Shown: positions 4,201 to 64,000, counted from the stretch's first letter. The stretch: 64,000 nt of DNA from an uncultured Phycisphaerales bacterium (GCA_964542475.1 CAZIUL010000009.1:65818-129817); one strand, 5' to 3'. Made by a program: numbers and translations. Notes: a model not told the origin generated them from the letters alone.

Positions 4201-4227
4201 GTGTGTTGAATTTTCAAATACTGCGGA

Positions 4228-4950: not shown

Positions 4951-5044
4951 AGTAACTCTCCTTAACTAAATTCCCCAGAAATATATTTCTATACACAGTT
5001 GCATTCATCAGCCAGATTCATTGTTCCCTGTTCTGCGAACGGCT

Positions 5045-5707: not shown

Positions 5708-5720
5708 GACGCATTTATCC

Positions 5721-8726: not shown

Positions 8727-8764
8727 TTCGCCTGCAGGTCTACCTCATATCGAAAAACACGCTT

Positions 8765-9829: not shown

Positions 9830-10103
9830 GTTGAACTCCCCAATCCCATTCTCTACAGAACAAATTCCCGCATTTCACGGAAACATGCGATGACTTCCAC
9901 AAAAGAAGATTTATAGAATATATCGAGATTCTTCGAGCCCAAGTTGAGAGGAATGATTTCCAGTATTACTAAAGTTCGGCAGGAATTGGGGTTGGCATTC
10001 GGGATCGGGGTCGGGAAGGGCACGTCAAGGGGTGCACACGCGGGCGCGCCCCTGCGCGATCAACGTAATATTGACATTATTCGTGTTGGGGCACAGGGAG
10101 CGG

Positions 10104-18575: not shown

Positions 18576-18667
18576 GTTCCAATTCCTTTATATTGAAAAC
18601 CGAGCCATACAATAAAAACTCGCATTTCCTGTACAAAAACTACGGCATCAGCTTCCAGATGCCATTG

Positions 18668-48075: not shown

Positions 48076-49169
48076 TTGCCCTTACCCAGAAATTCCCTTA
48101 TCGAATCCATAATACCGTCCCGATCCGGGATATCAGACGTTATCAACCGGTTGTCGTCCCCGAAAACCTTGTCCAAATCTTTCTTGAACTGCCCGGACCC
48201 GTAAGCGGATTTTACCTGACCGTAACAAAAAACATTGACAGCGGGAAAGATGTCGTCCTTGAGAAAATCGATACACTTTTCCGTGTCCCTACTGCTCCAG
48301 TTGTCGCCGTCCGAAAAATGAAACGGGTAGATATTCCATTCAGAAGGATGAAACTTATCCTCGATCATCTTGATACAGAGCTCAAATGCTGATGAAATCT
48401 TTGTGCCGCCTGATTCGCGCAGATGGAAAAAGGTGTGCTCATCCACTTCCTTTGCGGCCGCGTCGTGGACAATGAAGCGCCTTTCGATGCTCTTGTACTG
48501 CGATTTGAGCCAGGTGTCGATCCAGAAGGTCTCCAGCCTGACGACATCCTTTTGTTCATTGCCCATGGAACCCGAAACATCCATCATGTAGATGATGACG
48601 GCGTTGTTGTCGGGGTTTTGCCGCTCTGTCCAGGAACGATACCGTCTGTCATCCCTAATAGGAATGATCACCGGATCTTCCAGATCGTAGTTCCCGGTGG
48701 AAAGCTCGCGCTTGAGCGCCTCCTTGAAGGTTCGCTTGAAATGACGCAGCGACTCAGGGCCGACGCGCCTGATACCTGAGTATCGTCCTCCTGACGAAGT
48801 GATGTTGTCCTTCCCTCTCGGCTCTATTCTCGGCAGCTCCAGCTCTTCACCAAGGATCTGTGCCAGCTCCTCGAGCGTCACCTCAACCTCCAGGATGTGA
48901 GATCCCGGCTGATCTCCGGCAGCCCCCCGCCCATCATCCCCATCTACCGGCGTTCCCGCGTCTCCTTCGCCCTTCCCCACACCTTCCTTTTTGTTGTCGC
49001 CGTAATGAAAACGCGGCAGATCGATCTGTGGAATCGGTATGCTTACGATATTCCGTCCCTTCCTCCCTATCATTTCACGACCGGAAATGTACTTCTTGAG
49101 GTTCTTCTTGATCTTGCCCTTGACTATCTGATCGAAGCGGCTCTTGTCCTTGTCTATCTTGCGAACCAT
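48072..49169 (-). CDS. yeaH: YeaH/YhbH (DUF444) family protein
   Basis: DUF444 signature with a Gly-rich acidic loop and a vWA-like C-terminal half. 4-bp overlap with spoVR, 66 bp after prkA. Confidence 0.85.
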
Positions 49170-49235
49170 GATACCTCGCGGCCCCGTTCTGTAAGAAAAC
49201 CTTTTCGAATCGCCTTGCCGGATGACCGGTTGTAC

Positions 49236-51290
49236 CTATTGCTCATCATCCTTCACATCACCACGGGCAAATATACTCGCCACGAAGTTCAACACATCGG
49301 TTGCACAAATATCGCAGTAACCGTGGTTCCTTATCAGCCGCGACTTGACAACATCAATCTTCTCCTGCGTGTCCTTGTCCACAACGGTGGAGATGAGGCT
49401 TGTCAGCTTGATCGTGTCTTTCTGATCTTCGAAAAGCTTCAATTCCAGCGCCTTTTGGAGACGTTCGTTCGACTGCCATGTAAAAGACTTGCCCTCAACC
49501 GCCAGGGCGCCTATGTAGTTCATTATCTCCCGCCTGAAATCGTCCTTGCGGGAATCAGGAATACCTATCTTCTCTTCAATGGACCGCATCAACCTCTCAT
49601 CCGGCTCATCGTCATGGCCGGTGTACTTGTTCTTGATCTTCTCCTTCTGGGTATATGCTTTCACGTTGTCCAGGTAGTTTCCGCAAAGCTTCGCGACCGA
49701 CTCTTCATCCGCTGATATTGCGCGCTGGACTTCGTTCTTGACGATATCCTCGTACTCTTCCTTTACCATGGACAGAAGATCCCTGTACCGCTTCTTCACA
49801 TCTTCAGATGTGATGAGGGAGTGATGGGAAAGCCCTTCCTCCAGCTCGTTCATGACCATGAACGGATTGACGCACGGCTCGCCTGTATCGGTGACCAGGG
49901 CGTTGGAAACCTTGTCCTGAATGTAGCGGGGAGAGACACCGTCCATGCCTTCCCTGACAGCCTCCATCTGAAGCTCTTTTATGTTGTCCTTGGTAAAGCC
50001 GGGCAGAGTCTTCCCGTTGTAGAGCTTGAGCTTCTGGAGCACCGACAGGTTGGCGTTTTTAGGCTCTTCCAGGCGCGTCAGAATGGCCCACATCGCGGCG
50101 ATCTCTACCGTGTGGGGCGCGATGTGCTTGCCCGATATAACGGTGTTGCTGTAGTCTTTGCGGTATATCTTGATCTCTTCGTCAAGCATGATGTTGTAGG
50201 GGATGTCGATCTTGATTGTCCTGTCCCTGAAGGCCTCCATGAGCTCGTTGTTCTGGAGCTTGCGGTATTCGGGCTCGTTTGTGTGGCCGATGATCACCTC
50301 GTCGATATCCGTCTGCGGGAACTTTTTCGGCTTGACTGAATGTTCCTGGGAAGCGCCAAGCAGATCGTACAAAAACGCAACATCCAGCTTCAGCACCTCG
50401 ATGAACTCGATGATACCGCGGTTTGCGATGTTGAACTCGCCGTCGAAGTTGAACGCCCTGGGATCTGAGTCGGACCCGTAAAGGGCTATCTTCCGGTAGT
50501 TGATATCTCCGGTAAGTTCGGTTGAATCCTGGTTTTTTTCATCCTTTGGCTGAAACGTTCCAATCCCCTTCCGGTCCTCCTCCGAGAGAAGAAGCCGGTT
50601 CGCCTTCACATGGCCAAGGATCTTATCCCACTCACCGTTGTATTTGTTCATCAAGCTGGTGAAGTAATACCGGCAGTGCGGACAAAGAGACCCTTCGACT
50701 GAAAGCAGATAATCGGAGCTGTGCTTCTGGTTAAGATCATCGACGATTTCCCGGCGCGCCTCCTCGGGGATAATTCGCAGCGGCTCCTCGTTCATGGGGC
50801 ATGGCGTCCACTCCTCCTCTTCCGACATTCTCCATGAGAAGGTGAACTGCGGACCCTTTTCCGAGTGGGAGTAATGCTCCAATCCGCGTTTCATCAGCCT
50901 CACTATGGTTGACTTGGAGCTCCCCACTGGGCCGTGCAGGAGCAGCACGCGTTTTTCCACGCCGTATCCGTAGGCAGCCGATTTCAGGTTAGATACAAGA
51001 CGCATCAAGGGGCGTACCAACCCGAAAACAGCGTCTTTCCCGTCCCCAAGGACATCGTCGAAAAACTTGTAACGAATCAGGTTGTCCTTGGGATCTCCTA
51101 TCTCGAACGAACCGTAGCTTATGATCATCTCGTAAAGCCGCTGGAACGCGTTCCGTATTACCAAGGGATTTTCCCTGACCTTTTCGAGGTACTCCTCGAA
51201 GCTGCCCTCCCAGTGAAGCTCCTGGAATGCAGCAGGGTCAACACGCTGCTTAACGATTGAAATGTAATCACTTTTGCCGCTTTCCATCAT
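49236..51290 (-). CDS. prkA: PrkA-family serine protein kinase (AAA+ / kinase fusion)
   Basis: 684 aa. N-terminal P-loop [18 protein letters not shown]. PrkA-type C-terminal domain. Confidence 0.9.
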
Positions 51291-51410
51291 TGCCTCCCTC
51301 CGCTAAGGAGCTTTTTTATTTTTTTACCGGTTTGCTGGTAGCGATACCGCCTGCTCACCACTGTTTATAACGTATACATCGCCAGGATAACCGAAGAAAA
51401 CAATAGCAAA

Positions 51411-51427
51411 GGTTCAGAGGTTCAAAG
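51411..51427. repeat. Family-B repeat, left-end fragment (ggttcagaggttcaaag)
   Basis: Matches the left terminal inverted repeat of the 42075 and 37745 copies. Together with the right-end fragment at 54656-54684 it brackets the YfhO gene 51500-54442. Confidence 0.5.
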
Positions 51428-51499
51428 TTCTAGGTTTAAGGATACAGCCTGTAAGCATGGGAACCTGTTGTCAATCATTGATTTAGCAGGTGGATCATG

Positions 51500-54442
51500 T
51501 CAGGCCGGGGTCTCCCGCTTTTGCATTAGCCTGGTCAGGCCAGGCACTACAATGAACGCGAGGCACAAAAGAAGCGATGATAAAGCGATGTAGATCCCGC
51601 CATAAAAGGATGAGGGAGAGTACCTGAACTCAACCTCGTGCAGCCCCTCCTTCGCAAGCGGAACAGCACGAAAGCATGCGGTTGTTTTCAGTATCTGGAC
51701 CTCTTCACCATCCACAAACGCCTTCCAGCCGGGAAAATGGTTGTCTGTCAAAACAAGAAGCACCGGGCCTTCGTTTTTCGCCGAGAGACGGACATACTCG
51801 CTTTCGTAAACCTGGATATCCACCGACCCTTTCCCGCCCTTGGCAATGGGAGGCTCATTATGAAGAACCGGTTTGTTTCGCAGGTCGCTCCTCAAAACAT
51901 CCTCTATCGGATGGTCTTGCAGGTTGATCCAATCACCAACGATAAAGGCCCGCTTTCTTGCGTTGGTGTTTTCGTAGATCCTGACCTTTCCGTCGAAAAC
52001 CAGTTTGAACTTCTCGATCTTCGTCAAATCAAATTCGTTTTTGACAAGAACATACTTGATCCCCATGAAATCAAACAACGGGTGTTCCAGGTTGAAGTTC
52101 AAAACATTCAACTCGCGCGGCTTGGCAAGATGATCTCTTTTTATGTGATTGCATACTTTCCAGTACCCGTCGATTCCCAACCGATCATCCCACTCCATGT
52201 GTTCTATTCCGTACGGAAAGTTCGTGTTGGGCTGGAGTATGCCTCCTTCCGCGAAGATCCTGAACGGTTTTTCCCGGCTTGCAAAAAAATCGGTCACATC
52301 GGTGGGAGGATAGATGTCCTCTGTCGCTGATGTCTTGTTGTACCCCAGTCCAAAACAGCAAAGATCCAGGCCCAGCACCACAATCACCAGGGCGGCACGA
52401 AAAGCCGGGGGAAAGGTCCTGCTGAGCAGAAACAGAAACACCGCGACCGACAGGCAGAAAACAAGAAGGTCCTTCCGCGTCACGGTCTTTTCCCGGACAA
52501 GGCGCACATCGACCCAGTCGCCGTAAACGGCTTCTGAATCACCCTGGTTCGCACCGCCAGACTTCGACGGCATAACCCGTAGCTTATAAGTGCCCTCATC
52601 CAATGTGTCCAACGGATACGATAGCTCAAAACTTTTCGGGTACTTTTCGAGAGTAGCCCTATCTAACGATGCCGAGGGTTGATCCGTGCCTTCCTGTACG
52701 GCCGCGGCCCGGCCGGATTCTGTCTCCAGGCCGGAGGCATCGACCGTGCGCACGTCGCCCGCGAAAAGGTTGTCCAGGGTCGCGCGGACGTGCTCCACAT
52801 CCCGCGCAGCCCTTCCCCTGATCACGAACTCGTCGAGCCCGTTCTGAATGGTGCCCTTGACAGGGGAAGAGATGAGGATCTTGGCCTCTGCCGGGCTATC
52901 CTCTCCCATCAGCTCCTTTCCGGTTTCGAAAAAAGTCCACCCTGACACAATGACAGCCCACAATACGACCAGAGATGCCACTACAACACCACAGACGGCA
53001 GCGCTTTTTCCCCTGATGTTTGCGGCCCTGAACAGGAGATCCTCCAAGCCGAACGGCGCGATCACCGCGATTGAAAAGGCGGTGACGCATAAGAGTGAGC
53101 TGTTGTGGATCCAGCCCAGGAAAGGGACGGCCTTCAGGATGTGCACGAGCCAGGGTATGCTGTGCACCGCGCCAAAAGAAAAAATGAATAAAAAGATGAA
53201 GAACTGCAGCGGCCGTCTTTTACAGGGAGCGACAAATGTATACAGGGCCAAAAAGGCGGTGATGACCCCTACATAACCGCCGTTCAGTGCAGAATACGAG
53301 ATATCTCCAACCGTCCGGCACCCCCCATTCGCTGCACCGTACAGCTCCGGGAACACCTGCATCAAAAGATGCGGCTTCGCACCCAGCCAGAACCCGATCC
53401 TGAGCGCCACGATGAGGCATAAACCGCCGAGGAGGCCGGACCATACACCGATAAAGATCGTGTTTTTCCGCTGCAGGAGACCGATGGACGCACCCACAAA
53501 GACCGGAAAGAGCAGGCCCATGAAGACACCGAAAAATGTCAGGAGCCTGCCCGCCCCCCCGTTTAGAAACTCGCTCCAGTTTCCGATTCTCATCTCAAGG
53601 CCATAGCTGTGCCTGAGGTATTCGAAAAAGGGCAGCAGCTGAAACGAGGCAAGGGCCGCGCCGAGTAAACCGGCTAGCGCGCCGTAAAAAAGCAGTGACA
53701 GGCCTTCGGATCCGAAAAACTCCGCCTCCTGCCTGATACGATACAGCAGATATAGCGCCCATGACAAAAACAGGACAAAAGAAGTTTCCGGGCTTCCTCC
53801 CAGGAACTGCAGTCCGAGGAGAACAGCGTTGAAAACGATCGTGACACCAGTTCTTCTTTTCAGGTAAAACTCCACTGCCAGAAACAGCGCCGGCAGGAAA
53901 AGAGCAACATTGGAATGGGGATGGTTCATCCAGCATACCTGGAATCCGCTGAACCCGAAGGCTATTGCCCCTACCAGGCAGCTCAAAAATCGAAGCCCAT
54001 AGGTACGGAGAAGCATGTAGGCGAACACAGCGCCGGCCAGGAGCTTCAAGCCTCCTGCCAGGCTCCAGAACAGATCGAACGGCACAACCAACCCAAGCCA
54101 GTTAAGGGGATAAAAACATGCACAGGACATGTTCCCCATGAACGGCGTACCCCCGCCGGCCAGGTGCGTCCACAAAGGGATTCTGCCCTGGCGAATAGCA
54201 TTCCATGTGTGCTGCATCCAGGGGAGAACGACAAGCGCCTGATGATCAAGGGCCGGATTGAACGCGGCTGAGCTGTCGCGTTCCGAGTTTTCCCACGGCT
54301 GGATCGAGTAAAGAGGTTCGATGCATATCCCGGCTCTTGAGCTGAACAGCCCGTCCGAAACCAGAAAGGCGGCAAAACACAAGAACAGGAGTACCGCAAT
54401 AATACCTTTTCTCATGGTTTTGAAATTTCCGCTGTCATTCAT
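51500..54442 (-). CDS. YfhO-family polytopic membrane glycosyl-/arabinosyl-transferase-like protein (980 aa)
   Basis: About 14 predicted TM helices in the N-terminal 500 aa. Large periplasmic C-terminal part ending with the YfhO-type motif VLTDNHFPGWKAFVDGEEV...HEVEFRYSP and a final TM helix. Confidence 0.65.
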   Translation of the reverse strand: MNDSGNFKTMRKGIIAVLLFLCFAAFLVSDGLFSSRAGICIEPLYSIQPWENSERDSSAAFNPALDHQALVVLPWMQHTWNAIRQGRIPLWTHLAGGGTPFMGNMSCACFYPLNWLGLVVPFDLFWSLAGGLKLLAGAVFAYMLLRTYGLRFLSCLVGAIAFGFSGFQVCWMNHPHSNVALFLPALFLAVEFYLKRRTGVTIVFNAVLLGLQFLGGSPETSFVLFLSWALYLLYRIRQEAEFFGSEGLSLLFYGALAGLLGAALASFQLLPFFEYLRHSYGLEMRIGNWSEFLNGGAGRLLTFFGVFMGLLFPVFVGASIGLLQRKNTIFIGVWSGLLGGLCLIVALRIGFWLGAKPHLLMQVFPELYGAANGGCRTVGDISYSALNGGYVGVITAFLALYTFVAPCKRRPLQFFIFLFIFSFGAVHSIPWLVHILKAVPFLGWIHNSSLLCVTAFSIAVIAPFGLEDLLFRAANIRGKSAAVCGVVVASLVVLWAVIVSGWTFFETGKELMGEDSPAEAKILISSPVKGTIQNGLDEFVIRGRAARDVEHVRATLDNLFAGDVRTVDASGLETESGRAAAVQEGTDQPSASLDRATLEKYPKSFELSYPLDTLDEGTYKLRVMPSKSGGANQGDSEAVYGDWVDVRLVREKTVTRKDLLVFCLSVAVFLFLLSRTFPPAFRAALVIVVLGLDLCCFGLGYNKTSATEDIYPPTDVTDFFASREKPFRIFAEGGILQPNTNFPYGIEHMEWDDRLGIDGYWKVCNHIKRDHLAKPRELNVLNFNLEHPLFDFMGIKYVLVKNEFDLTKIEKFKLVFDGKVRIYENTNARKRAFIVGDWINLQDHPIEDVLRSDLRNKPVLHNEPPIAKGGKGSVDIQVYESEYVRLSAKNEGPVLLVLTDNHFPGWKAFVDGEEVQILKTTACFRAVPLAKEGLHEVEFRYSPSSFYGGIYIALSSLLLCLAFIVVPGLTRLMQKRETPA

Positions 54443-54655
54443 GACCGCCCCAGGCGAACCTTTTTATGACCTGCCAAGGCAAGATATACTTTTCCGGACA
54501 GGAATACAAACAAAAGACCGTACTCTTCCGGCGGATCTGTTCGGTGTTCAGGAAAAGGGGGGTTCGCGAACCGCCTCTACACGATCAAATGAATCTATAC
54601 GTTCTTCTTGTGGGGCGGTCTCCTGCGGTTGCCCTCCGGGTTCGCGCGCCTTCCA

Positions 54656-54684
54656 CAACCTTGAACCTCTGAACCTTGAACCTC
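54656..54684. repeat. Family-B repeat, right-end fragment with internal duplication (caaccttgaacctctgaaccttgaacctc)
   Basis: Matches the right terminal inverted repeat of family B. Confidence 0.5.
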
Positions 54685-54958
54685 TTCATCCTCCTCCGCG
54701 ACCTTCGCGGCTTTGCGAGAGTTATTTCTTAAATTTCGAACATCCGGTGTATGGACAATCGCCTCGATTTTTGATTATCTGAACCCTTTGTTCGGGTGGT
54801 TTCATGAAACACTGCTCCTATACCAATACTGGAAAATGCTTACAGGCCCCTTTTCCCCTCAGGAAACGCGTGTTACCGGGGACGAAAAACGACCCCGGAA
54901 TAAACCCGAGCGGCCCGTTCCGGACAAGGACTAATCCTAAGGCCCCAGGCTGATATAA

Positions 54959-55675
54959 ATGTTCACAAGCGTAATCATACCGGTATTCAACGAGTCCTCC
55001 TGCATCGAGTGTAACATCGAGGCTGTCAACGCCTTCCTGGGGCAGCGTTTCCCGGACAAGAGCGAGATAATATGTGTTGACGACGGAAGCACTGACAACA
55101 GCCTGGAGATACTTGGCGGGCTGGCGGAACAAATGCCCCTGTCCGTGCTTTCCAACGGAAGCAACATGGGTAAAGGCGCGGCGATCCGGAACGGAATGCT
55201 CGCGGCCAAAGGCGAGATCCGCTTTTTCTTCGATGCCGACCTGTCAACGCCGCTGACCGAAATCGACAGGTTTCTGCCGCAGCTCGAAAAGGGCTTCGGC
55301 GTGGTCATAGGCAACCGCAAATCACGCGATGCCCGGATCAACAGGTACCAGCCCGTCTACCGCGTTCTGATGGGATTGGGATACACCCGCATGGTAAACC
55401 TCGTCATGGGCATGAAGGTATCCGACTACACGTGCGGCTTCAAAGCGTTTTCAGAAAAGGCCGCGGACCTGATCTTCAAAAGAGCCCGGATAAACGGCTG
55501 GTCGTTCGATGTCGAGATCCTCTACATCGCGCACAAGCTCGGCCTTGACTTGTGCGAGGTCCCCGTAACCTGGGAAGACAGGCCCGGGACCAAGGTGCGC
55601 CTGGTAAAAGACACAATACGTTCTTTTCTGGAGGTGCTCAGGGTGCGCAGGCTCCACCGCAGTTTGAGCGCCTGA
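54959..55675 (+). CDS. GT2-family polyprenol-phosphate glycosyltransferase (DPM1/ArnC/GtrB-like)
   Basis: IIPVFNES...ICVDDGSTDNS (DXD region) and a catalytic core ending before any TM. 238 aa. Divergent from the YfhO gene. Confidence 0.8.
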   Translation: MFTSVIIPVFNESSCIECNIEAVNAFLGQRFPDKSEIICVDDGSTDNSLEILGGLAEQMPLSVLSNGSNMGKGAAIRNGMLAAKGEIRFFFDADLSTPLTEIDRFLPQLEKGFGVVIGNRKSRDARINRYQPVYRVLMGLGYTRMVNLVMGMKVSDYTCGFKAFSEKAADLIFKRARINGWSFDVEILYIAHKLGLDLCEVPVTWEDRPGTKVRLVKDTIRSFLEVLRVRRLHRSLSA

Positions 55676-55823
55676 TGACCGATAAAGAACCGTGGCGGTC
55701 ATGGAATCGTCACTACAGGAATAGGCCCGGAATTTCGATGACAATCAAAACACATAACTTCGGACATACTGAAGAGTTGGCGGCAGAGAACTTCTTTTCA
55801 CAGCGCCGGCGGAATGACCAGAG

Positions 55824-57227
55824 ATGAACAAAGTAGTAACAATACTTGGAGCGGGGCTGACCGGGCTTAGCACAGGGTATGCTCTGGCGAAAGCCGGAGT
55901 CGCTGTCCGGATCATCGAAAAAGAGCACTATATCGGCGGACTCGCCACCAGCTTCGTCTCGGGCGATTTCACCTACGACCTGGGCCCGCACCGATTCCAC
56001 TCCCACGACGACAAGGTTCTCGATCATGTGAAGGATCTGCTTCTCGACAACTGGCACTACCGCGACCGACTCTCCAGGATCTTCATGAGAGACAGGTTCT
56101 TCAACTACCCGTTGAAAGCATCAAACGTGCTGAAAAACCTGCCAATGCCCTTCCTGGCCAAGGCGTTCGCGAATTACATCGGGATCCGAATCAGGAACAG
56201 CGTACGGCCGATACCTGACGACTGCTTCGAAAACTGGGTAATGAAGAGGTTTGGCAAAACCCTTTACGAGACGTTTTTCGGCATGTACACGGAAAAGGCA
56301 TGGGGCATGCCGTGCACGGAGATCTCAGCGGACTGGGCCGCCCAGAGGATCACCCTTCTTAACCTCTGGGACACGGTCAAAAAGACGTTGTACAAACCCA
56401 AGAACATGCCGAGAACGTACGTTTCCAAGTTCATCTATCCGATCAAAGGCGGCATCCGCGCGATCTGCGACCGCTACGCCGAAGAGATATGTAAAAACGG
56501 AGGCGAGATCATACTGGGGGCAAAGATCAAGGGGATCGAGACCAAAGGAACAAGAGCTCAAACGATTAGCTTTGAGGTCAAGGGTGCCATCCGCACGTTG
56601 GAAATCGAAAGGTTGGTTTCTACGATACCCTGCACCGTGCTTCTCGACTACGTTCATCCAGCCGCACCGGAACCGGTCAGGGCGGCGAACAGCGCCTTGA
56701 AGCACATCTCGATAGTGTTCGTAATACTCGACCTCGCGCTGGACAAACTGACAGACGATCACTGGATCTACCTGCCGGAGCACCACCTGACGATCCATCG
56801 CATATCAGAGTTCAAAAACTTCTCGGACCAATCCTCCCCTGCGGGCAAGACCGTGATCTGCGCGGAGATCACCTGCTCCAAGGGCGACAGGATCTGGAAC
56901 TCGGACCATGCAACAGTCAAAAACATCGTTGCAAAGGATCTACAGGTGCTCGGGTTGATCAAGCCGGGTGATGTGGGACGGGCGCGCATCCACAGGGCCT
57001 CTCACGCGTACCCCACTTACGATCTGAAATACAAGAACAACCTCGATACCCTGCTCGGGTACCACAACTCATTCGAGAATATACTCACAGCAGGGCGCCA
57101 GGGTCTCTTTAAATACAACAACATGGATCACTCGATCGAGATGGGGCTCGATGTGGCGGAATCCATCCTGACCGGAAAAAAACAGGGGCATGGAACAATC
57201 GCCTCCGAAAAGAAGTATTTCGGGTAA
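55824..57227 (+). CDS. FAD/NAD(P)-binding oxidoreductase (amine-oxidase / UDP-galactopyranose-mutase-like fold)
   Basis: N-terminal Rossmann motif VTILGAGLTGLSTGYALAKAGVAVRIIEKEHYIGG. 467 aa. Confidence 0.6.
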   Translation: MNKVVTILGAGLTGLSTGYALAKAGVAVRIIEKEHYIGGLATSFVSGDFTYDLGPHRFHSHDDKVLDHVKDLLLDNWHYRDRLSRIFMRDRFFNYPLKASNVLKNLPMPFLAKAFANYIGIRIRNSVRPIPDDCFENWVMKRFGKTLYETFFGMYTEKAWGMPCTEISADWAAQRITLLNLWDTVKKTLYKPKNMPRTYVSKFIYPIKGGIRAICDRYAEEICKNGGEIILGAKIKGIETKGTRAQTISFEVKGAIRTLEIERLVSTIPCTVLLDYVHPAAPEPVRAANSALKHISIVFVILDLALDKLTDDHWIYLPEHHLTIHRISEFKNFSDQSSPAGKTVICAEITCSKGDRIWNSDHATVKNIVAKDLQVLGLIKPGDVGRARIHRASHAYPTYDLKYKNNLDTLLGYHNSFENILTAGRQGLFKYNNMDHSIEMGLDVAESILTGKKQGHGTIASEKKYFG

Positions 57228-57244
57228 AACAAGGTATTGCTCAG

Positions 57245-58150
57245 ATGATGAACGAGCCGGCATACACGGAAGAGTTCCCTTGTCTGCTATGCAATGGCAG
57301 GGCCTACAACGTGCAGCACCGGAAAGAACCGTTCAAATCGGTCCGGTGCAAAGGATGCGGCCTGGTGTACATAACACCGCGCCTGGCCTCCAGGGCGATA
57401 ATCGACCTCTACAGCGAAAGCTACTGGAAATCCGACCGGGCCAAGGACTACGGCTACACCGACTACCTCGCCGACTCACAGCTCTACCTGTCGACTTTCA
57501 GGATGCGCTCACGCGTCATCGACAGGTACAAGCCCGTGCCCGGCAAGGTGCTGGATGTCGGGTGCGCCGCCGGTTTCTTCCTGAAGGTCATGGACGAAAA
57601 GGGGTGGGAAACCCACGGCGTGGAGGTGTCGGACACGGTGGCGGAGTTCGCCAGGACCCAACTGAACCTCTCAAACGTCCACACCGGAAACACGTCAACG
57701 CTGCAGGCCATGCCTGAAAAAGAGTTCGACGTGATCACCTTCTGGGACGTTGTCGAACACCTCGAAGATCCGGTTTCAGCGATCAGCGCCGCGCACCGTC
57801 TTCTCAAGGACGACGGAATAATAATCGTGGAAACGCAAAACGTCGAATCAGCCTTTGCCTACCTTCTTGGGCCGAGGTGGCAGCACTACAAGTACGAGGA
57901 GCACCTCTACCACTTCTCTCCACAGACGCTCAGGCTGCTGCTTTCCAGCGCCGGATTTCACATCGTGGAAAACACGGCCCGCTACGGCGGCAAAAAGGTA
58001 TCGATCAGCTTCATCGTCGAGAGGGTGGGAAAGCTGCATCCACTCTTAACAAAACTCTTGTCACCGCTGAAAATCATTGGAAACTGTAACCTGTACCTTA
58101 ACTTCTTCGATGAGATGATAGCGGTTGCCCGAAAAACCGGGCGCGGGTAA
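57245..58150 (+). CDS. Class I SAM-dependent methyltransferase with N-terminal Cys4 zinc ribbon
   Basis: CLLCNG...CKGCG, then methyltransferase motif I VLDVGCAAGFF, post-I and motif II. 301 aa. Confidence 0.7.
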   Translation: MMNEPAYTEEFPCLLCNGRAYNVQHRKEPFKSVRCKGCGLVYITPRLASRAIIDLYSESYWKSDRAKDYGYTDYLADSQLYLSTFRMRSRVIDRYKPVPGKVLDVGCAAGFFLKVMDEKGWETHGVEVSDTVAEFARTQLNLSNVHTGNTSTLQAMPEKEFDVITFWDVVEHLEDPVSAISAAHRLLKDDGIIIVETQNVESAFAYLLGPRWQHYKYEEHLYHFSPQTLRLLLSSAGFHIVENTARYGGKKVSISFIVERVGKLHPLLTKLLSPLKIIGNCNLYLNFFDEMIAVARKTGRG

Positions 58151-58152
58151 AG

Positions 58153-58929
58153 ATGCACGATCTGGCATATCATCAGTTTCTCAAGCTAGAGAAGTCGCAC
58201 TGGTGGTTCATCGGGCGGCGTCGCACAGTTTTCTCCATCCTCGAGCGGTATCTCGAACGGAACAAGAACGCCCGTGTAATGGATGTGGGATGCGGCTTCG
58301 GCGGCATGCTCGACAACCTGGCCGGGTTCGGCCACCCCATGGGATTGGAGATCGACCTGGAATCCGCGAGGTGCTGCAAACAGCGAGGATTCGAAGGCGT
58401 CTGCCTTGGTTCCGGATATTCCCTGCCGCTCAAGGACAACTCGCTCGACCTGATAACGCTTTTCGATACTCTCGAGCACATGAAAGACGACCGGAAGGTT
58501 GTCCGGCAGTGCGCAGCAGCGCTAAAGCCCGGCGGGCATCTCATGATCACCTCCCCTGCATACCAGTTCCTCTACGCGGACAACGATCGTATCGCCCAGC
58601 ACCAGCGCCGTTACACGCTCTCCAACCTGAAGCGGATTGTGAGCTCATCGGGCCTGGATGTTGTAAAAGGAACCTACTTCAACGTGCTCCTGTTTCCGTT
58701 GATTCTCCCAGCGGTGCTTCTGCTGAAAGCCAAGCAGGGGCTGTCGAGGATGCTCTTCAAAACAGCCGGAAGCGCGACAAACCTCTCGTACCGGTACCCG
58801 GGGCCGCTCCAAAGCGCTCTCAAATGCATCTTTTCTTTTGAACGCCACCTGCTGACAAGAATCTCTTCCCCTGCAGGGCACTCGATCGTGCTGATCGCTG
58901 TAAAACCGGAACCCGGGGAAAAAAGATGA
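58153..58929 (+). CDS. Class I SAM-dependent methyltransferase
   Basis: Motif I VMDVGCGFGGM. LKPGGHLMI (motif III). Start 3 bp after the previous stop. 4-bp overlap (ATGA) with the downstream YfhO gene. Confidence 0.7.
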   Translation: MHDLAYHQFLKLEKSHWWFIGRRRTVFSILERYLERNKNARVMDVGCGFGGMLDNLAGFGHPMGLEIDLESARCCKQRGFEGVCLGSGYSLPLKDNSLDLITLFDTLEHMKDDRKVVRQCAAALKPGGHLMITSPAYQFLYADNDRIAQHQRRYTLSNLKRIVSSSGLDVVKGTYFNVLLFPLILPAVLLLKAKQGLSRMLFKTAGSATNLSYRYPGPLQSALKCIFSFERHLLTRISSPAGHSIVLIAVKPEPGEKR

Positions 58930-61589
58930 TTCCGGGGCGAAGCAGCACCTTGCAGGCGATGGTGATTCTCGGCCTTGCCGCCCTCCTTCTCTTTGCGGAG
59001 CTGCTGTTTTCTGGAAGGCTTCCGTTCCCGGCGCACACCGACGCTTTCCTGCCATGGAGAAGCGGCTCAAGCCCGGAGCACCTGGCTGCGGTCAGGGAGC
59101 GCATGAACCACGAGGTCACGGACAAGCAGTTCTCGTTTCACCCGGACAACCAGGTCGCCTGCGACGCCTTTCAGGACGGCCGCCTGCCGCTCTGGAATCC
59201 GTACCAGATGGCAGGGCTTCCCTACCTTGGCCAGAGCCTCTACGGTGTCTTTTACCCGCTGAACCTTCCCATGTTCATTCCAGGCCCGCCGGAAAAGTGG
59301 TACGCGCCGCTCGCGGCTTTGCACTTCTTCATGGCCGGTTTTTTTACATATCTTTTGCTGAAACGTCTCGGTCTTTCAGGCGCGGCCGCGCTTGCCGGTG
59401 GACTGATCTTCATGTGCTCGGCGAACATGACCGCCAGGTTCCACTACTACATGACGATCTACCCCATGGCCTGGGCCCCGCTCATGCTCTACCTCGTGCA
59501 CAAATACAACAGGGACCGCTCAATCCTGAGCCTTTGCGGACTCGCCGCGGTGAGCGCTCTCACCCTTCTGACCGGGTTCCAGCAGGTGGCTGCCTACCTG
59601 TTTTGCCTGGTCATGGTTTTCAGCCTGTTCTGGTGCGCCCGAGACCGGTACGAGATCAGGGTGAAGCCGGGCCTGCTCGCTGTGGCAGCTGTCGGGGCCG
59701 CCGGACTCGCTGCTGCAGCCGCCGGCATGAATCCGTGGATGGCCTACACATTCGGCGCGCCCCTGGCGGTTCTATGCTTCTTCGCGGTAGGCAAGGGGTT
59801 TTTCCGGTGGATCTCGGCCGCGCTGCCCGTGGGGTTCGCGCTCTGCCTGAGCGTAGGCCTTGCAGCGGTGCAGCTTGCGCCGGTCCTGGCCTTGATGCCG
59901 CTTTCGATGCGGGTTCCCATCGCTCCCATGTCGATGATCAATGATCTGCACCTTCCGGGCGCGGGATTGATCGGGCTCATCATGCCCACCCTGCTGAACG
60001 ACCCGGTCTGGGCTCTTTCAAGCACTTCCTTCAACCTGGCGGGCACGGTGCTGGCGGGCGGGGTTAAAGGGCTGAACTACACGGAGAACAGCCTCTACAT
60101 CGGAGTGCTTCCCCTGGTCCTTGTCGCCTTTTGCGCGTTCAAAGGCAAGGGCAGCGGCAAAGCGGTTCTGATCGCTGCACTCTGTCTGGTTTGCGTGGGC
60201 ATCGCCTTGGGGATCTCCTTGGTCATTCTTCCCTACTGGTTAGCCCCGCCGTTCAGGTACGGCGATCCCAGGCGGGCACTGCTCGTTTTCTCGTTCCTGA
60301 TGAGCCTTCTGGCAGCTTTCGGATTCGAACGTATCCGAAAGGGCGCAATAGGGACAACGCGCGCTCTCGTGCCTGCCCTAGCTCTTGTGGCAGTTGCCGT
60401 TGCATGCGCGGCAGGAGCGGTTTTCGCATGCGTGCCGATCGCGGAGTTCTTTCACGGATGCCTGGTCGCGAGCTCCCCGGAAGCTGCATCACAGCTGCCT
60501 GGAGGTTTAACGGATGAGATCATCATGGAAAACGGCGGACAGGTCCGCTGGGCCCTGCTCCATCTCGCGCTCGCGTCCGCGCTCGGGGGCGCGGCCCTGA
60601 TGCGCCTGTCGTTCAGGCCGGGCCGCCTTGCCATCGCGTTGGTGCTTCTTGCCGTGGCCGTGGATCTTATGCCGCTTTCCTGGCGTGTAAACCCGCCCCA
60701 GGACCCAGAAGGTTTCCTGGGAACCGATCCGAGCATCGCTGTCATGTGCAAAGACACGGACAACGGCCCGTTCAGGATCTACCGCTACACCGAAGAGACC
60801 GCCTCCGCCGCCCGGATTCCACTCCCCCCTGACATGACGACACATTTCCAAATCGAGGATGTGGAAGGCCACGTGGCACAGCCGCTCAAAAGGTACTTCG
60901 AGCTCTTAAACGCGGTGCAGCCGGATCCCCCGGTTGCGCCCATAGGCTCCAAGGTGCTGCCGATCTCAAAAACCGAAGCGCTCGATTCCCCGCTGCTCGA
61001 TCTTCTCGGGGTCAGGTACATGCTAACAACCCGCGAAATCCCCGATGGAATGGGATATGAGAGCGTCCATGCCGCAAATGGAATCCATGTCTACGAAAAC
61101 AAGGAGGCGTTCCCGCGCGCTTTCCTCGTTCCATCGGCGCGGTTCATCGAAGCGGAAGATCAGGATGCCCGGGCCGAATCGCTGAAAGCCGTGCTTGAGC
61201 TCGGTCCGGGACAGGGCCTGCGCTCGCAAGCCGTGGTGGAAGGAGATCCTTTCGGTTTCTTTCCCGCTGAAGGCCCGCTGCCGGAGGCCAGGGTCATCTA
61301 CCGCTCCCCTGAGGAGGTGGAGGTCGCCTTTGACACCCCGGCGCCGGGCGGGTTGCTGGTGCTCACCGACACATACTACCCCGGATGGAAGGCCGAGATC
61401 GACGGGAAAGAACACCCGGTCATGCCTGCTGACCACGCATTCCGCTGCGTGTGCGTGCCGCGAGGAAGCCGAAAGGTCGTGTTTTCTTTCGAACCTCCCG
61501 AGGTAAAGGTGGGCATCGCTGTGAGCCTGGCGAGTGTTGCCTTGTTGCTCCTCGCCTCAGCCTGGGTCCTCCTCAAAAAACGCCCGTAG
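58926..61589 (+). CDS. YfhO-family polytopic membrane transferase-like protein (887 aa), second paralogue
   Basis: Many TM helices. C-terminal motif VLTDTYYPGWKAEIDGKEHPV...RKVVFSFEPP plus a terminal TM. Same architecture as 51500-54442. Confidence 0.65.
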   Translation: MIPGRSSTLQAMVILGLAALLLFAELLFSGRLPFPAHTDAFLPWRSGSSPEHLAAVRERMNHEVTDKQFSFHPDNQVACDAFQDGRLPLWNPYQMAGLPYLGQSLYGVFYPLNLPMFIPGPPEKWYAPLAALHFFMAGFFTYLLLKRLGLSGAAALAGGLIFMCSANMTARFHYYMTIYPMAWAPLMLYLVHKYNRDRSILSLCGLAAVSALTLLTGFQQVAAYLFCLVMVFSLFWCARDRYEIRVKPGLLAVAAVGAAGLAAAAAGMNPWMAYTFGAPLAVLCFFAVGKGFFRWISAALPVGFALCLSVGLAAVQLAPVLALMPLSMRVPIAPMSMINDLHLPGAGLIGLIMPTLLNDPVWALSSTSFNLAGTVLAGGVKGLNYTENSLYIGVLPLVLVAFCAFKGKGSGKAVLIAALCLVCVGIALGISLVILPYWLAPPFRYGDPRRALLVFSFLMSLLAAFGFERIRKGAIGTTRALVPALALVAVAVACAAGAVFACVPIAEFFHGCLVASSPEAASQLPGGLTDEIIMENGGQVRWALLHLALASALGGAALMRLSFRPGRLAIALVLLAVAVDLMPLSWRVNPPQDPEGFLGTDPSIAVMCKDTDNGPFRIYRYTEETASAARIPLPPDMTTHFQIEDVEGHVAQPLKRYFELLNAVQPDPPVAPIGSKVLPISKTEALDSPLLDLLGVRYMLTTREIPDGMGYESVHAANGIHVYENKEAFPRAFLVPSARFIEAEDQDARAESLKAVLELGPGQGLRSQAVVEGDPFGFFPAEGPLPEARVIYRSPEEVEVAFDTPAPGGLLVLTDTYYPGWKAEIDGKEHPVMPADHAFRCVCVPRGSRKVVFSFEPPEVKVGIAVSLASVALLLLASAWVLLKKRP

Positions 61590-61611
61590 GGGCGAAAACC
61601 CTTCCGCCCTC

Positions 61612-61651
61612 TAACCCGCATATTTCATCCTCTTCTGCTGCGGCACCGTAA
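61612..61651. repeat. Family-A repeat, solo copy
   Basis: taacccgcatatttcatcctcttctgctgcggcaccgtaa. Generates the spurious ORF tail ...NPHISSSSAAAP. Confidence 0.7.
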
Positions 61652-61652
61652 A

Positions 61653-61690
61653 CAAAAAAAAGGGGCGCTTTTCAGCGCCCCTGATTTTTT
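61653..61690. terminator. Bidirectional rho-independent terminator
   Basis: aaaaaaaa-ggggcgcttttcagcgcccc-tgatttttt. Lies between the convergent YfhO (+) and citrate synthase (-) genes. Confidence 0.8.
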
Positions 61691-61714
61691 CGATATATTT
61701 CCGCCTGAATGCTT

Positions 61715-63019
61715 TTAGTTGAAAAAGTTCTCCTTGGCGAACTTGGTGGTGAATGTTTTCGGCCGCTCGAGCGGGAGGAGCAGGCCGCGGTCCCAGACCA
61801 GGTTTCCGCACACGCCCATCGCCCTTGAGACGCCGAACAGCACCGTGTAGAAGTCGTACTCGGTCATGCCGTAGTGTACGAGCAGGCAGCCGGAATGGGC
61901 ATCAACATTGGGCCACGGATTCTTGGCCTTGCCTTGCTCCCTGAGGATGTCCGGCGCGACCTCGTAGATGCCGCTGACGACCTTGAAGATCTCGTCTTCC
62001 GGCAGGTGCTTCAGGGCGAACTCTCTCTGCGCCGAATACCTGGGATCGGTCTTTCTCAGCACGGCATGTCCGTAACCGGGGATGACCTGTCCGCTGTTCA
62101 GGGTGTCCCAGAGGAACTTGACGATCTGGTCCTTGGTGGGAACACCGCCGCCGAGCTTCTCCTTGACATCCATGATCCAGCGCAGCACCTCCTGGTTCGC
62201 AAGCCCGTGCAACGGACCGGCGAGCGCGTTGATGCCGGCTGACAGCGAGTAGTACGGATCCGAAAGCGTGGAGCCTACCAGGTGAGTGGTGTGAGCGCTC
62301 GCGTTGCCGCCTTCATGGTCCGAATGAATGGTCAGGTAGAGGCGAAGGAGCTCTTTGAACTTCTCGTCGTCGTAACCCATCATCTGTGCGAAGTTGCCGC
62401 CCCAGTCCAGGTTGGAATCGGCTTCGATCTTCTGGCCGCCCTTGTAGGAACGGTTGTAAACCATCGCGGCAAGCGCTGGGAGCCTGGCGAGGAGGTTCAT
62501 GACGTCCTCATATGTCGGATCCCAGTACTCCATCTTGTTGATGCCCTCGCGGTACTGCTTGGCAAAGATCGAATCTTTCTGCATGGAAAGGATGCCCAGG
62601 GAAAACTGGGTCATGGGGTGCATATCCGTTGGCAGGGAATCGAGCATCTTCACGGTGTAGTCTGGAAGCGCGCCGCGGCTCCTCCACTCTTCGGTTACCT
62701 CCGCGACTTGGGCAGCCGTGGGAAGCTCGCCTGTCATGAGAAGCCAGAACAGGCCTTCGGGCAGAGGCTCGGCTCCTCCCTTGGCCTTGGGCAGCTTCTC
62801 CTGGAGCTCCGGAATGGTGTAGCCCCTGAACCTGATCCCCTCTTCCGGATCCAGATAGGAAAGCTCCCACGACATGCACTTGATGCCGCGCATGCCGCCG
62901 TAAGCCTGCTTCAGGGTCACTTCGTGGATAACGTCATCGCCGTGCTCCTTGATGAGCGACTTGATCTCCTCTCCCTGTGCGAGGATTGCGGTTCTGACCT
63001 TTTCTTTTAATGTTCCCAT
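61715..63019 (-). CDS. gltA: Citrate synthase, eukaryotic (mitochondrial)-type
   Basis: 434 aa, collinear with animal mitochondrial citrate synthase (GGMRG, LHPMTQFS, HSDHEGGNASAHT, GYGHAVLRKTDPRY, NVDAHSG). This is not the usual bacterial hexameric type. Confidence 0.9.
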   Translation of the reverse strand: MGTLKEKVRTAILAQGEEIKSLIKEHGDDVIHEVTLKQAYGGMRGIKCMSWELSYLDPEEGIRFRGYTIPELQEKLPKAKGGAEPLPEGLFWLLMTGELPTAAQVAEVTEEWRSRGALPDYTVKMLDSLPTDMHPMTQFSLGILSMQKDSIFAKQYREGINKMEYWDPTYEDVMNLLARLPALAAMVYNRSYKGGQKIEADSNLDWGGNFAQMMGYDDEKFKELLRLYLTIHSDHEGGNASAHTTHLVGSTLSDPYYSLSAGINALAGPLHGLANQEVLRWIMDVKEKLGGGVPTKDQIVKFLWDTLNSGQVIPGYGHAVLRKTDPRYSAQREFALKHLPEDEIFKVVSGIYEVAPDILREQGKAKNPWPNVDAHSGCLLVHYGMTEYDFYTVLFGVSRAMGVCGNLVWDRGLLLPLERPKTFTTKFAKENFFN

Positions 63020-63164
63020 ACTCCTGCTCCTTGTTAAACAAACAAATATTGATTAATGCAACAATGCCTTACTTTACATGAATGCAAAACCGAGACTTTA
63101 ACAAAGAACGTCAATTTTGCAGTGCTGCCGAGTTGTTTTCAAGCATAAAAACAGGGGAGTTTTG

Positions 63165-63215
63165 GAAGATTAAGGAAGGAGGAAGGAGGAAGGAGGAAGA
63201 AGAAGAGGAAGAGAA
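63165..63215. repeat. Purine-rich simple repeat (aaggaggaaggaggaaggaggaagaagaagaggaagag)
   Basis: Tandem GGAAGGAG-like units in the gltA upstream region. Polypyrimidine on the gltA sense strand. Confidence 0.6.
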
Positions 63216-63241
63216 CCACGGATCAACACGGATAAATCATT

Positions 63242-63991
63242 TTATAGCGGTTCTCTTCTCCCGATCCCCACCCCGGCCAGGTAAAGGAAAAGCGTCACAG
63301 TCGCCAACAGGTGAAGGGCCGCGGGTACACAGCTAGAGATTGACCCGCCTGCCAGGGTGATGGGATCGAGGCGGCTGAACGCGGGTGTAAAAAGCGCCAG
63401 CGGGAGGGGGATGAAATCGGAGGCGTAACCCAGCACAAGGACAAGCGCGGCGCACACACATGCCGGGGCATATGAAAAAAACCTGGATATCATCAAGACA
63501 AGCGCACACACAGGCAGGCAGGAAAAAAAAGCGCACACTGTCCCGGTCAAGGGTCCTGCCCGGACGGCTGCCCTTGAAACGCAAATTTCCCAGACCACGG
63601 ACAGGAAAACGCCGCCAAGCAGGAAATAGATGAGAAGCGCCAGGGCAAACCCGGTAAAAAGGCCTGTAACAACCGCGTTCTTTCCAGGAGAAAGGGCGAA
63701 AAAAACCTCGCTGGCCCGGCGTCCTTTCGAAGGCACCAGCAGAAGGGGAACGAAAATCAGAGCGCTCAAGCAGCCCCCTGTGTAAAGCGTGGAAACTCCG
63801 GCATCCGTGTAATGGCGCGCGTCAGCCGCGATCCCCGGGGAAAACGGCACTGTACTCAGGCAGCTGAGCACGATAAAAAACGCGGAACAGATCAGGAACC
63901 CCGGGCGTCTGGCAGTGTCGAGAAAAGCGACCCTTGCAAAGGCGGTCATCTGGTTAATGAAAGCGGTGGATTTGTTCATCTTAACCCGCAT
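63242..63991 (-). CDS. Polytopic membrane protein, function unknown
   Basis: 249 aa, about 6 hydrophobic helices, no recognisable motif. Start uncertain. Confidence 0.4.
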   Translation of the reverse strand: MRVKMNKSTAFINQMTAFARVAFLDTARRPGFLICSAFFIVLSCLSTVPFSPGIAADARHYTDAGVSTLYTGGCLSALIFVPLLLVPSKGRRASEVFFALSPGKNAVVTGLFTGFALALLIYFLLGGVFLSVVWEICVSRAAVRAGPLTGTVCAFFSCLPVCALVLMISRFFSYAPACVCAALVLVLGYASDFIPLPLALFTPAFSRLDPITLAGGSISSCVPAALHLLATVTLFLYLAGVGIGRREPL

Positions 63992-64000
63992 ATTTCATCC
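63982..64000. repeat. Family-A repeat, copy cut by the window end (taacccgcatatttcatcc)
   Basis: Exact match to the first 19 nt of the motif. Confidence 0.6.

Follow-up and report, generated by a model that had tools for sequence, protein, structure and literature searches.

Here we analyse a 64,000-nucleotide stretch of DNA from an uncultured Phycisphaerales bacterium (GCA_964542475.1 CAZIUL010000009.1:65818-129817; referred to as the window), focusing on a set of six genes between positions 51,500 and 61,589. The set encodes two YfhO-family proteins (YfhO-A and YfhO-B), a family 2 glycosyltransferase (GT2), a flavoenzyme resembling UDP-galactopyranose mutase (UGM), and two S-adenosylmethionine (SAM)-dependent methyltransferases (MT1 and MT2). 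Judging from sequence comparisons and structure models, we propose that the six gene products make a ring-contracted, methylated sugar, load it onto a lipid carrier, and attach it to an envelope target outside the cytoplasm, a proposal to which we give a little less than an even chance. By the same comparisons the cluster appears to be a variant on a familiar kind of glycosylation system; among the 80 genome loci that were retrieved, no cultured organism carried the full cluster.

Gene organization of the cluster

The first-pass annotation of the window had placed six open reading frames (ORFs) here, and all six were found exactly at its coordinates and in its domain families, with Pfam in agreement. 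Public copies of the same contig (JGI 3300009128 Ga0118727_1000626; ENA SUTE22-1 scaffolds) carry identical gene calls.

51500-54442, minus strand: YfhO-A, 980 aa (971 aa in one public contig copy, with a start 9 codons later)
54443-54958: divergent intergenic region of 516 bp, separating YfhO-A from GT2
54959-55675, plus strand: GT2, 238 aa; Pfam Glycos_transf_2, 96 bits
55824-57227, plus strand: UGM-like flavoenzyme, 467 aa; Pfam Amino_oxidase, NAD_binding_8, and GLF matches
57245-58150, plus strand: MT1, 301 aa; Methyltransf_23, 100 bits, and a weak Zn_ribbon match
58153-58929, plus strand: MT2, 258 aa; Methyltransf_23, 67 bits
58926-61589, plus strand: YfhO-B, 887 aa; last gene of the predicted operon
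61661-61682: bidirectional intrinsic-terminator-like hairpin; 9-bp stem containing 7 GC pairs, flanked on each strand by a T-run

Gaps of 148 nt (GT2/UGM-like), 17 nt (UGM-like/MT1), and 2 nt (MT1/MT2) separate the plus-strand genes, and the sole true overlap is the ATGA shared by the MT2 stop and the YfhO-B start (58926-58929). The overlapping stops and starts first described for 57245-58929 are therefore present at the MT2/YfhO-B junction, whereas MT1 and MT2 stand 2 nt apart. The hairpin closes the plus-strand unit, with YfhO-B on one side and a citrate synthase gene on the other. The short or overlapping junctions from the UGM-like gene to YfhO-B, together with the terminator after YfhO-B, suggest that GT2 to YfhO-B form an operon, and the 516-bp spacer is presumed to hold the promoter region for both transcription units.

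The UGM-like flavoenzyme

The flavoenzyme had been labelled an FAD oxidoreductase in the first-pass annotation, which left a choice between UGM-like and amine-oxidase homology. The flavoenzyme part of that label holds; the sequence, however, places the protein more specifically in the UGM family, as a probable pyranose/furanose mutase for a nucleoside diphosphate sugar and not as a net oxidoreductase. A single-sequence phmmer search of the PDB retrieved UGMs of the eukaryotic type (2e-26) and of the bacterial type (1e-14), and a profile of 18 family members aligned residues 4-451 with residues 9-475 of the Aspergillus fumigatus enzyme (AfUGM) at 7e-39, so that both methods gave the UGM-like outcome. 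The following AfUGM residues, given in the numbering of that enzyme (chain 3UTE is offset by +3), have counterparts that are invariant in the family alignment (family numbering in brackets): H63 (H56, the flavin-loop His), R182 (R175), R327 (R326), W315/Y317 (W314/Y316), Y162 (Y155), Y419 (Y396), Y453 (Y431), Y104 (Y95), R447 (R425), and N457 (N433). In AfUGM, R182 and R327 are needed for activity, the diphosphate is bound by four Tyr residues (Y162, Y317, Y419, and Y453), Y104 forms a stack with the uracil, and N457 contacts the galactose (PMC3322874). The FAD Rossmann motif G9-x-G11-x2-G14 is likewise invariant in the family, and the flavin loop reads GPHRFHS, that is, the bacterial GPHxFH form. 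Also invariant is the block F151-F152-x2-Y155-T156-x-K158-x-W160, which we take to match the uridine-binding block of bacterial UGMs.

Family models place the protein near the named UGMs yet apart from them: Pfam GLF scores 30.4 against a cutoff of 26.3 (partial domain), the bacterial UGM equivalog TIGR00031 scores 68.8 against 303.75, and NCBIfam PRK07208.1-4, a "hypothetical protein" model, scores 382 bits against 389. The unnamed PRK07208 group is large: a search of 1.84 billion representatives gave 1649 clusters at E<=1e-30. Homologues of the flavoenzyme are annotated as protoporphyrinogen oxidase by JGI and as FAD-dependent oxidoreductase by NCBI. Compared with UGM (Glf), then, the protein shares the FAD Rossmann motif, the GPHxFH loop, the two Arg, the four diphosphate Tyr, the uracil-stacking Tyr, and a full-length alignment of the eukaryotic type, and it differs in its PRK07208 membership, its sub-cutoff TIGR00031 score, and the presence of Val and Phe at AfUGM positions N207 and Y334. 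A role as amine oxidase, phytoene desaturase, or protoporphyrinogen oxidase was considered and rejected, since those families match only the N-terminal dinucleotide-binding region of about 70 residues, whereas UGM matches from end to end with its catalytic residues. UDP-galactose is, on sequence grounds, the most likely substrate. Given the UGM-family assignment, the sugar modification would therefore consist of ring contraction plus methylation.

The GT2 glycosyltransferase

The GT2 protein had first been read as a polyprenol-phosphate glycosyltransferase, and it does group with polyprenyl-phosphate sugar synthases in both PDB and NCBIfam searches. Its best PDB matches are the P. furiosus dolichyl-phosphate mannose synthase (DPMS; 8e-14), ArnC (1.5e-13), and GtrB (6e-9); a DAD motif at residues 92-94 aligns with the DAD metal site of DPMS, and a D-x3-GF motif aligns with the corresponding DPMS motif. 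The best NCBIfam models are PgfS, ArnC, dolichyl-phosphate hexose transferase, AglJ, and PpgS.

Hydrophobic-segment prediction found no transmembrane (TM) helix across the 238 residues, unlike the GtrB/CsbB/ArnC subtype. Because of this absence and its size, the protein resembles DPM1, PpgS, and GacI/WpsA rather than GtrB or CsbB, and it appears most similar to polyprenyl-phosphate sugar synthases of the DPM1/PpgS/GacI-like type that consist of the GT-A catalytic domain only. DPM1 and PpgS are TM-less and act with a membrane partner. GacI and WpsA are likewise TM-less GT2s that work with a membrane partner (PMC10821137).

The YfhO-family proteins

Sequence and structure models together identify YfhO-A and YfhO-B as divergent, polytopic members of the YfhO family, predicted to be GT-C glycosyltransferases. 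Both match the Pfam YfhO model PF09586 above its cutoff of 28.5 bits (32.1 and 56.5 bits, respectively), although only at profile positions ~762-835, corresponding to the C-terminal ~70 residues; a relative of YfhO-B (P0042, E=1e-26) matches profile positions 4-551 and so bridges to the N-terminal part. Homologues of YfhO-A at 57% identity are named "YfhO family protein" by NCBI, and the two window proteins share 26% identity over their N- and C-terminal regions.

About 14 hydrophobic segments were predicted in YfhO-A. The AlphaFold (AF2) models have mean predicted local distance difference test (pLDDT) values of 93.9 (YfhO-B) and 86.3 (YfhO-A). In the YfhO-A model an additional, predicted periplasmic beta-sandwich is inserted at about residues 520-650, and the C-terminal part has a beta-sandwich together with a terminal TM helix. 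Foldseek searches of the PDB returned AftD as the top match of YfhO-B (1.5e-6), followed by STT3, ArnT, PglB, and Pmt4, and STT3, AftD, PglB, Pmt4, DPY19, and Emb for YfhO-A; for both models, all significant matches are GT-C transferases that work with lipid-linked donors. Because the TM-scores are low (0.2-0.46), these matches speak for the fold class only, and no solved YfhO structure was found. The fold matches nonetheless agree with the first-pass description of both proteins as transferases of the periplasmic-face, lipid-donor type. Asp66 of YfhO-B, in the first outward loop after TM1, is kept in 78 of 87 homologues within the motif D-x6-P...GRLPLWNP...GxP...FYP, and YfhO-A has Asp66 within the same motif. 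Since positive residues precede TM1 and follow the last TM helix, the Asp66 loop and the C-terminal beta-sandwich are predicted to lie outside the cytoplasm.

A YfhO-B paralogue of 47% identity (L007:8740-15301) was also seen beside genes for a DRL-type oxidoreductase, a GT4, a 394-aa GT2, and a DUF3352 protein, in a setting that has neither UGM-like nor methyltransferase genes.

The methyltransferases

PDB and NCBIfam searches yielded no specific assignment for MT1 or MT2, both of which are class I SAM methyltransferases. The N-terminus of MT1 carries a zinc-ribbon-like CxxC...CxxC motif of four Cys, and its otherwise generic PDB matches include the sugar 3-C-methyltransferase KijD1 (1e-6). 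MT2 scores 45 bits, below the cutoff, against the DVU_1556 family and has a hydrophobic segment at residues 170-188 that may possibly serve in membrane association. In one related locus, MT2 and YfhO-B are separated by a gene for a B12-binding radical SAM protein (L010:8407-9843, minus strand), which may represent a third methylation-type enzyme of the cluster.

Conservation of the cluster and gene fusions

The 80 genome loci were retrieved with a profile of the UGM-like protein, and their ORFs were searched with the window proteins and a YfhO hidden Markov model. In two relatives at ~50% protein identity (L009 and L010), the whole arrangement is kept, with PrkA on one flank and citrate synthase on the other. 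The first-pass annotation had made its reading depend on co-conservation of the genes, and the UGM-like, MT1, and MT2 genes do stay adjacent in ~17 of the loci retrieved, nearly all of them metagenome-assembled genomes (MAGs) of Planctomycetota, with UGM-like identities of 45-53%; 13 of them also have a YfhO gene no more than 10 kb away, and in 9 the YfhO-A and GT2 genes form a pair upstream. Because the arrangement is syntenic at ~50% identity and recurs in more distant MAGs, the six genes are not a chance juxtaposition. Relative to L012 and L016, identities are 72-73% for PrkA, 47-48% for GT2, 49-52% for the UGM-like protein, 49-54% for MT1, and 43-50% for MT2, compared with 25-27% for YfhO-A and 30-40% for YfhO-B. 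Conservation of the cytoplasmic enzymes alongside divergence of the YfhO proteins is what would be expected if acceptors differ between lineages.

In four Planctomycetota MAGs, a response regulator and a histidine kinase gene lie between the YfhO-A/GT2 and UGM-like/methyltransferase halves (L021, L023, and L026, at ~7000-9900; L033, at 3244-5798), and the same four have an extra MT2-like gene after GT2. The two-component pair hints at regulated expression of the system.

Outside the Planctomycetota clade the methyltransferases drop out, and a looser module of UGM-like, GT2, and GT-C genes recurs. Two loci of the candidate phyla radiation (CPR; L056 and L059) have a UGM-like gene followed by a short AglJ/PpgS-like GT2 and one or two GT-C genes, and archaeal and Geobacter MAG loci likewise have an AglJ/PpgS-like GT2 beside the UGM-like gene. 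Three fusions join these functions in single proteins: a UGM-like domain with a GtrA/DPMS TM domain (P0462), a UGM-like domain with LPG_synthase_TM of the MprF type (P0424), and a GT2 with YfhO (P0343).

Two further features of these sequences were recorded. The proteins P0431 and P0473 bear N-terminal extensions of 225-330 aa with no Pfam match. The CPR loci, from Microgenomates and Gottesmanbacteria (L056:1-12600 and L059:6700-17700), are rich in GT-C genes (PMT, PMT_2, PTPS_related, and PIG-V-like) and also have GT4 and ABC-2 transporter genes, with an additional epimerase gene in L056.

Proposed pathway

Systems that combine a GT-A enzyme, a flippase, and a GT-C enzyme, YfhO enzymes included, are well established (PMC8035078; PMC12041528). 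From the gene set, the family and fold assignments, the retained catalytic residues, and the co-conservation, we infer a scheme of five steps, including the sugar, the order of the steps, the stage of methylation, the flippase, and the acceptor. First, the UGM-family flavoenzyme would convert a UDP-hexopyranose, most likely UDP-galactose, to the furanose form in the cytoplasm. Second, the soluble DPM1/PpgS-type GT2 would place the furanose on polyprenyl (undecaprenyl) phosphate at the inner membrane face. Third, MT1 and MT2 would O-methylate the sugar in the cytoplasm, with MT2 perhaps using the lipid-linked form by way of its hydrophobic segment; methylation is placed before export because SAM is available only in the cytoplasm. 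Fourth, a flippase encoded elsewhere, or the product of the nearby gene orf249, would carry the lipid-linked sugar to the periplasmic face. Fifth, YfhO-A and YfhO-B would each transfer the sugar to a different acceptor, or to a different position, on an envelope polymer or protein.

Several observations weigh against this scheme. Two sugar-contacting AfUGM positions are invariantly changed in the family, N207 to V200 and Y334 to F333, and for this reason the sugar may not be galactose; the N207 position is Phe in prokaryotic UGMs (PMC3322874). The GT2 protein falls far below every NCBIfam equivalog cutoff, with PgfS the best at 74 against 500 bits, and its donor and acceptor specificity was left unassigned on that account. 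MT1 and MT2 are generic and could act on something else. A polyprenyl-phosphate-linked galactofuranose donor was not found in the literature searched, which excludes subscription journals and so makes for weak evidence, and step two is therefore without direct precedent; nothing relevant on UGM in Planctomycetes was found in the same literature. Small polytopic ORFs were searched for a flippase, and no small 4-TM GtrA-like or Wzx-type ORF was found in the window. Lastly, the co-conservation comes entirely from MAGs of one phylum-level group, plus the looser parallels elsewhere.

Neighbouring genes and alternative pathways

Beyond the terminator lie two further genes that bear on the flippase and on the most serious alternative:

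61715-63019, minus strand: citrate synthase, convergent with YfhO-B; matches the eukaryotic-type model TIGR01793 (682 bits; cutoff, 620)
63242-63991, minus strand: orf249, with 7 hydrophobic segments and no Pfam match

The product of orf249 is the only unassigned polytopic protein in the window; L009 and L010 have it at the corresponding place, with 38-40% identity. It is possibly associated with the system, as a candidate partner or flippase. Flippase genes are unlinked in several known systems (PMC8035078, Table 1). Past the window end, orf249 adjoins a second short GT2 gene (L001:18365-19060, 231 aa; AglJ 125 bits, PpgS 91 bits), followed up to L001 position 21404 by a 405-aa GT2 and a GT2/GT4 fusion. 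L009 and L010 share the synteny of this set, and L016 does so in part. A further lipid-priming system may be encoded by the orf249/second GT2 set, one that would supply either the acceptor polymer or the other YfhO enzyme. With no linked flippase and with glycosyltransferase genes past citrate synthase, the cluster is not self-contained; the core logic of the modified- or methylated-sugar pathway first proposed for it (GT2, YfhO, and co-conservation) stands to the extent that sequence analysis can show.

The second short GT2, the 7-TM protein, and the GT2/GT4 run past citrate synthase make an oligosaccharide-level pathway of the lactococcal Wps/PSP type a serious rival, which we nevertheless regard as rather unlikely. 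In such a pathway GT2 would prime the carrier, the neighbouring GT2/GT4 enzymes would extend the chain using the UDP-furanose, the methyltransferases would modify or cap it, and, after flipping, one YfhO protein would polymerise the chain while the other ligated it to an envelope anchor. The lactococcal model pathway exists, with a TM-less GT2, Glf-made UDP-Galf, and two GT-Cs (PMC10821137). The window GT2 also has no TM helices, the second AglJ/PpgS-like GT2, the 7-TM protein, and the GT2/GT4 run are syntenic in L009, L010, and L016, and the CPR loci carry further GT2/GT4 genes after the GT-C gene. Many of the distant YfhO-B homologues (P0014-P0016, P0018, P0025, and others) are ~1350-aa fusions of a Wzx/MurJ-type flippase (PF01943, PF13440, PF03023) with YfhO, mostly from Anaerolineae/Chloroflexota-type MAGs, and these fusions suggest that some YfhO enzymes handle Wzx-flipped oligosaccharides. 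The neighbouring glycosyltransferase genes and the Wzx-YfhO fusions fit an oligosaccharide pathway equally well, and count against transfer of a single sugar. On the other side, no elongating glycosyltransferase lies within the operon, and the neighbouring glycosyltransferase genes are encoded on the other strand, with a housekeeping gene and a terminator in between. The GT2-YfhO and UGM-GtrA fusions point to direct hand-off of a monosaccharide. PpgS, moreover, is a TM-less GT2 of a monosaccharide system. TM-less GT2s such as GacI serve such systems as well (PMC10821137). It is also possible that the two pictures combine, with one GT2/YfhO pair installing a polymer and the other decorating it.

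A second alternative keeps the monosaccharide logic and moves the ring contraction to the lipid: GT2 would make a polyprenyl-phosphate hexopyranose, and the flavoenzyme would then contract the ring on the carrier. The mycobacterial flavoenzyme DprE1, which takes part in remodelling decaprenyl-phosphate-ribose to decaprenyl-phosphate-arabinofuranose, offers a parallel. The gene order GT2, UGM-like, MT1, MT2, YfhO-B agrees with such a sequence of events, fusions with the GtrA/DPMS TM domain and with LPG_synthase_TM put the enzyme at the membrane, and the family is distinct from the characterised UGMs (69 against 304 bits for TIGR00031). The residues that bind uracil (Y95) and diphosphate (four Tyr and two Arg) are, however, invariant, and a fusion may merely tether a soluble enzyme to the membrane, so that we consider mutase action on the lipid-linked sugar improbable.

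Equally improbable, in our judgement, is that the genes are neighbours with no shared pathway, the UGM-like protein and methyltransferases serving a cytoplasmic polysaccharide or small molecule (or the FAD protein being a true oxidase or desaturase) and YfhO/GT2 an unrelated glucosylation system: the methyltransferases and the FAD protein do carry only generic database names, the cluster halves lie ~3 kb or more apart in L015, L021, L023, L026, and L033, and many distant UGM-like genes have no methyltransferase or YfhO neighbour, but the cluster persists despite divergence of the YfhO proteins to 25-40% identity, the association of UGM-like, short GT2, and GT-C genes recurs independently in the CPR, fusions join the UGM-like protein to flippase domains and GT2 to YfhO, the operon spacing is tight, and the intact UGM catalytic residues argue against an oxidase or desaturase.

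Surrounding region and transcription signals

The giant lipoproteins and pilin encoded elsewhere in the window had been suggested as acceptors, a suggestion that finds no support here. A search of the window proteins, the two giant ones and the pilin-like one among them, found no Ser/Thr-rich disordered stretch like those glycosylated by the streptococcal YfhO enzymes (maximum Ser+Thr fraction of 0.33 in any 30 residues). The two giant proteins (14477-18625 and 18668-21952, both on the minus strand; 1382 and 1094 aa) have no recorded Pfam domain; next come a 309-aa ORF and a gene for a prepilin peptidase, all in a type IV pilus/type II secretion system neighbourhood.

On its other side, YfhO-A adjoins a PrkA/DUF444/SpoVR operon of the YeaG-YeaH-YcgB type (46549-51290, minus strand), and PrkA stays beside the cluster in L010, L012, L013, and L016. 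The citrate synthase gene sits between the two glycosylation gene groups, a position kept in L009 and L010.

No Rfam family was matched in positions 51000-64000 at E<=0.1. The frequency of sigma-70-like sites did not exceed that in shuffled sequence, with no convincing consensus in the divergent spacer, and the sigma-54 consensus gave 0 sites in that spacer and fewer matches overall than expected by chance; alignment with the spacer of L010 revealed no conserved block. The GC content of positions 58001-62000 is 0.59-0.60, compared with ~0.50-0.54 across most of the window, probably because the composition of YfhO-B is rich in Ala and Gly. A foreign origin of the cluster was considered and rejected: its third-position GC (GC3) is 0.65-0.76 against 0.59-0.70 elsewhere, like that of citrate synthase and PrkA.

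Comparison with known systems

Judged by sequence scores that fall well short of the equivalog cutoffs, none of the systems compared is an orthologue of the window system. The closest architecture is that of the Pgf operon of Streptococcus mutans (PgfS, PgfE, PgfM1, and PgfM2), which carries out protein O-glycosylation by means of a GT-A that loads undecaprenyl phosphate, a sugar-nucleotide epimerase, and two YfhO-family GT-Cs (PMC12041528). The parts list (GT-A, sugar-nucleotide isomerase, and two YfhO GT-Cs) matches that of the window, PgfS is the best NCBIfam match of the window GT2, and both YfhO proteins have weak C-terminal matches to PgfM1/PgfM2, although none of the scores comes near its equivalog cutoff (74 against 500, 30 against 1500, and 20 against 1400). 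The S. mutans system has a 4-epimerase, whereas the window has a UGM-type mutase and two methyltransferases, and PgfS has a C-terminal TM region (308-position model) that the window GT2 (238 aa) does not possess. Furthermore, S. mutans is a Firmicute, whereas the host of the window is of the diderm type (Planctomycetota-like), with no Ser/Thr-rich acceptor proteins nearby.

In the CsbB/GtcA/YfhO systems of Bacillus subtilis, Staphylococcus aureus, and Listeria, a GT-A makes a C55-P-sugar, and a YfhO GT-C transfers it outside the membrane (PMC8035078). The likeness lies in the GT-A/YfhO logic, and there, too, the flippase need not be linked; the sugar is N-acetylglucosamine (GlcNAc), whereas that of the window is predicted to be a methylated furanose, and the window has two GT-Cs per GT-A and a GT2 with no TM anchor, unlike the CsbB/GtrB types. 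Teichoic acids are not expected in the lineage of the window host. The analogy with YfhO-CsbB teichoic-acid glycosylation drawn in the first-pass annotation consequently names the right type of system, and the Pgf operon replaces it as the closest architecture.

The closest chemistry is found in the lipid-linked furanose system of mycobacteria, in which AftD/Emb GT-Cs with periplasmic sugar-binding domains take the furanose from decaprenyl-phosphate-arabinofuranose, a donor that a flavoenzyme helps to make. Mycobacterial PpgS makes polyprenyl-phosphate-GalNAc (N-acetylgalactosamine) and works with Rv3779. AftD is the top structural match of YfhO-B, at low TM-scores (0.27-0.37) that indicate a shared fold class only, and PpgS, a profile match, is a short TM-less GT2 like that of the window. 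The mycobacterial furanose, however, is arabinose, made on the lipid from phosphoribosyl pyrophosphate (PRPP) by DprE1/DprE2 with neither a UGM-type mutase nor methylation.

Finally, the lactococcal Wps system (WpsA/B, Glf, WpsG, WpsH, and WpsJ) shares with the window a TM-less GT2, a UGM, and two outside-acting GT-Cs. In this system the TM-less WpsA and a small membrane activator make GlcNAc-P-C55, elongation includes galactofuranose (Galf) from Glf-made UDP-Galf, flipping is of the Wzx type, and the GT-Cs WpsH and WpsJ polymerise and transfer the chain, respectively (PMC10821137). The Wps cluster includes elongating glycosyltransferases, a Wzx flippase, and the small activator, none of which the window operon has, and its GT-Cs are not described as YfhO family.

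Biological significance

To our knowledge, galactofuranose is installed in every characterised case from UDP-Galf in the cytoplasm or Golgi, and we know of extracytoplasmic furanosylation from a lipid donor only for mycobacterial arabinan. A broader proposal, which we put well below an even chance, is that a polyprenyl-phosphate furanose donor (for example, undecaprenyl-phosphate-galactofuranose, here O-methylated) exists outside the Actinobacteria, that it would be made by the uncharacterised UGM branch together with a DPM1-like GT2 and used by an outer-face GT-C of the YfhO or PMT-like kind, and that it is widespread in uncultured Planctomycetota, CPR, and some archaea. Were the cluster merely to decorate a local polysaccharide, it would amount to one more glycan locus in a MAG. 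Should the cluster do what its parts suggest, a second lipid-linked furanose donor would be established, parallel to the decaprenyl-phosphate-arabinofuranose of mycobacteria and with the furanose formed through other chemistry; the large unnamed UGM branch, with its 1649 clusters, would gain a function; and YfhO-type glycosylation would be extended from the teichoic acids and proteins of Gram-positive bacteria to the envelopes of diderm bacteria and candidate phyla.

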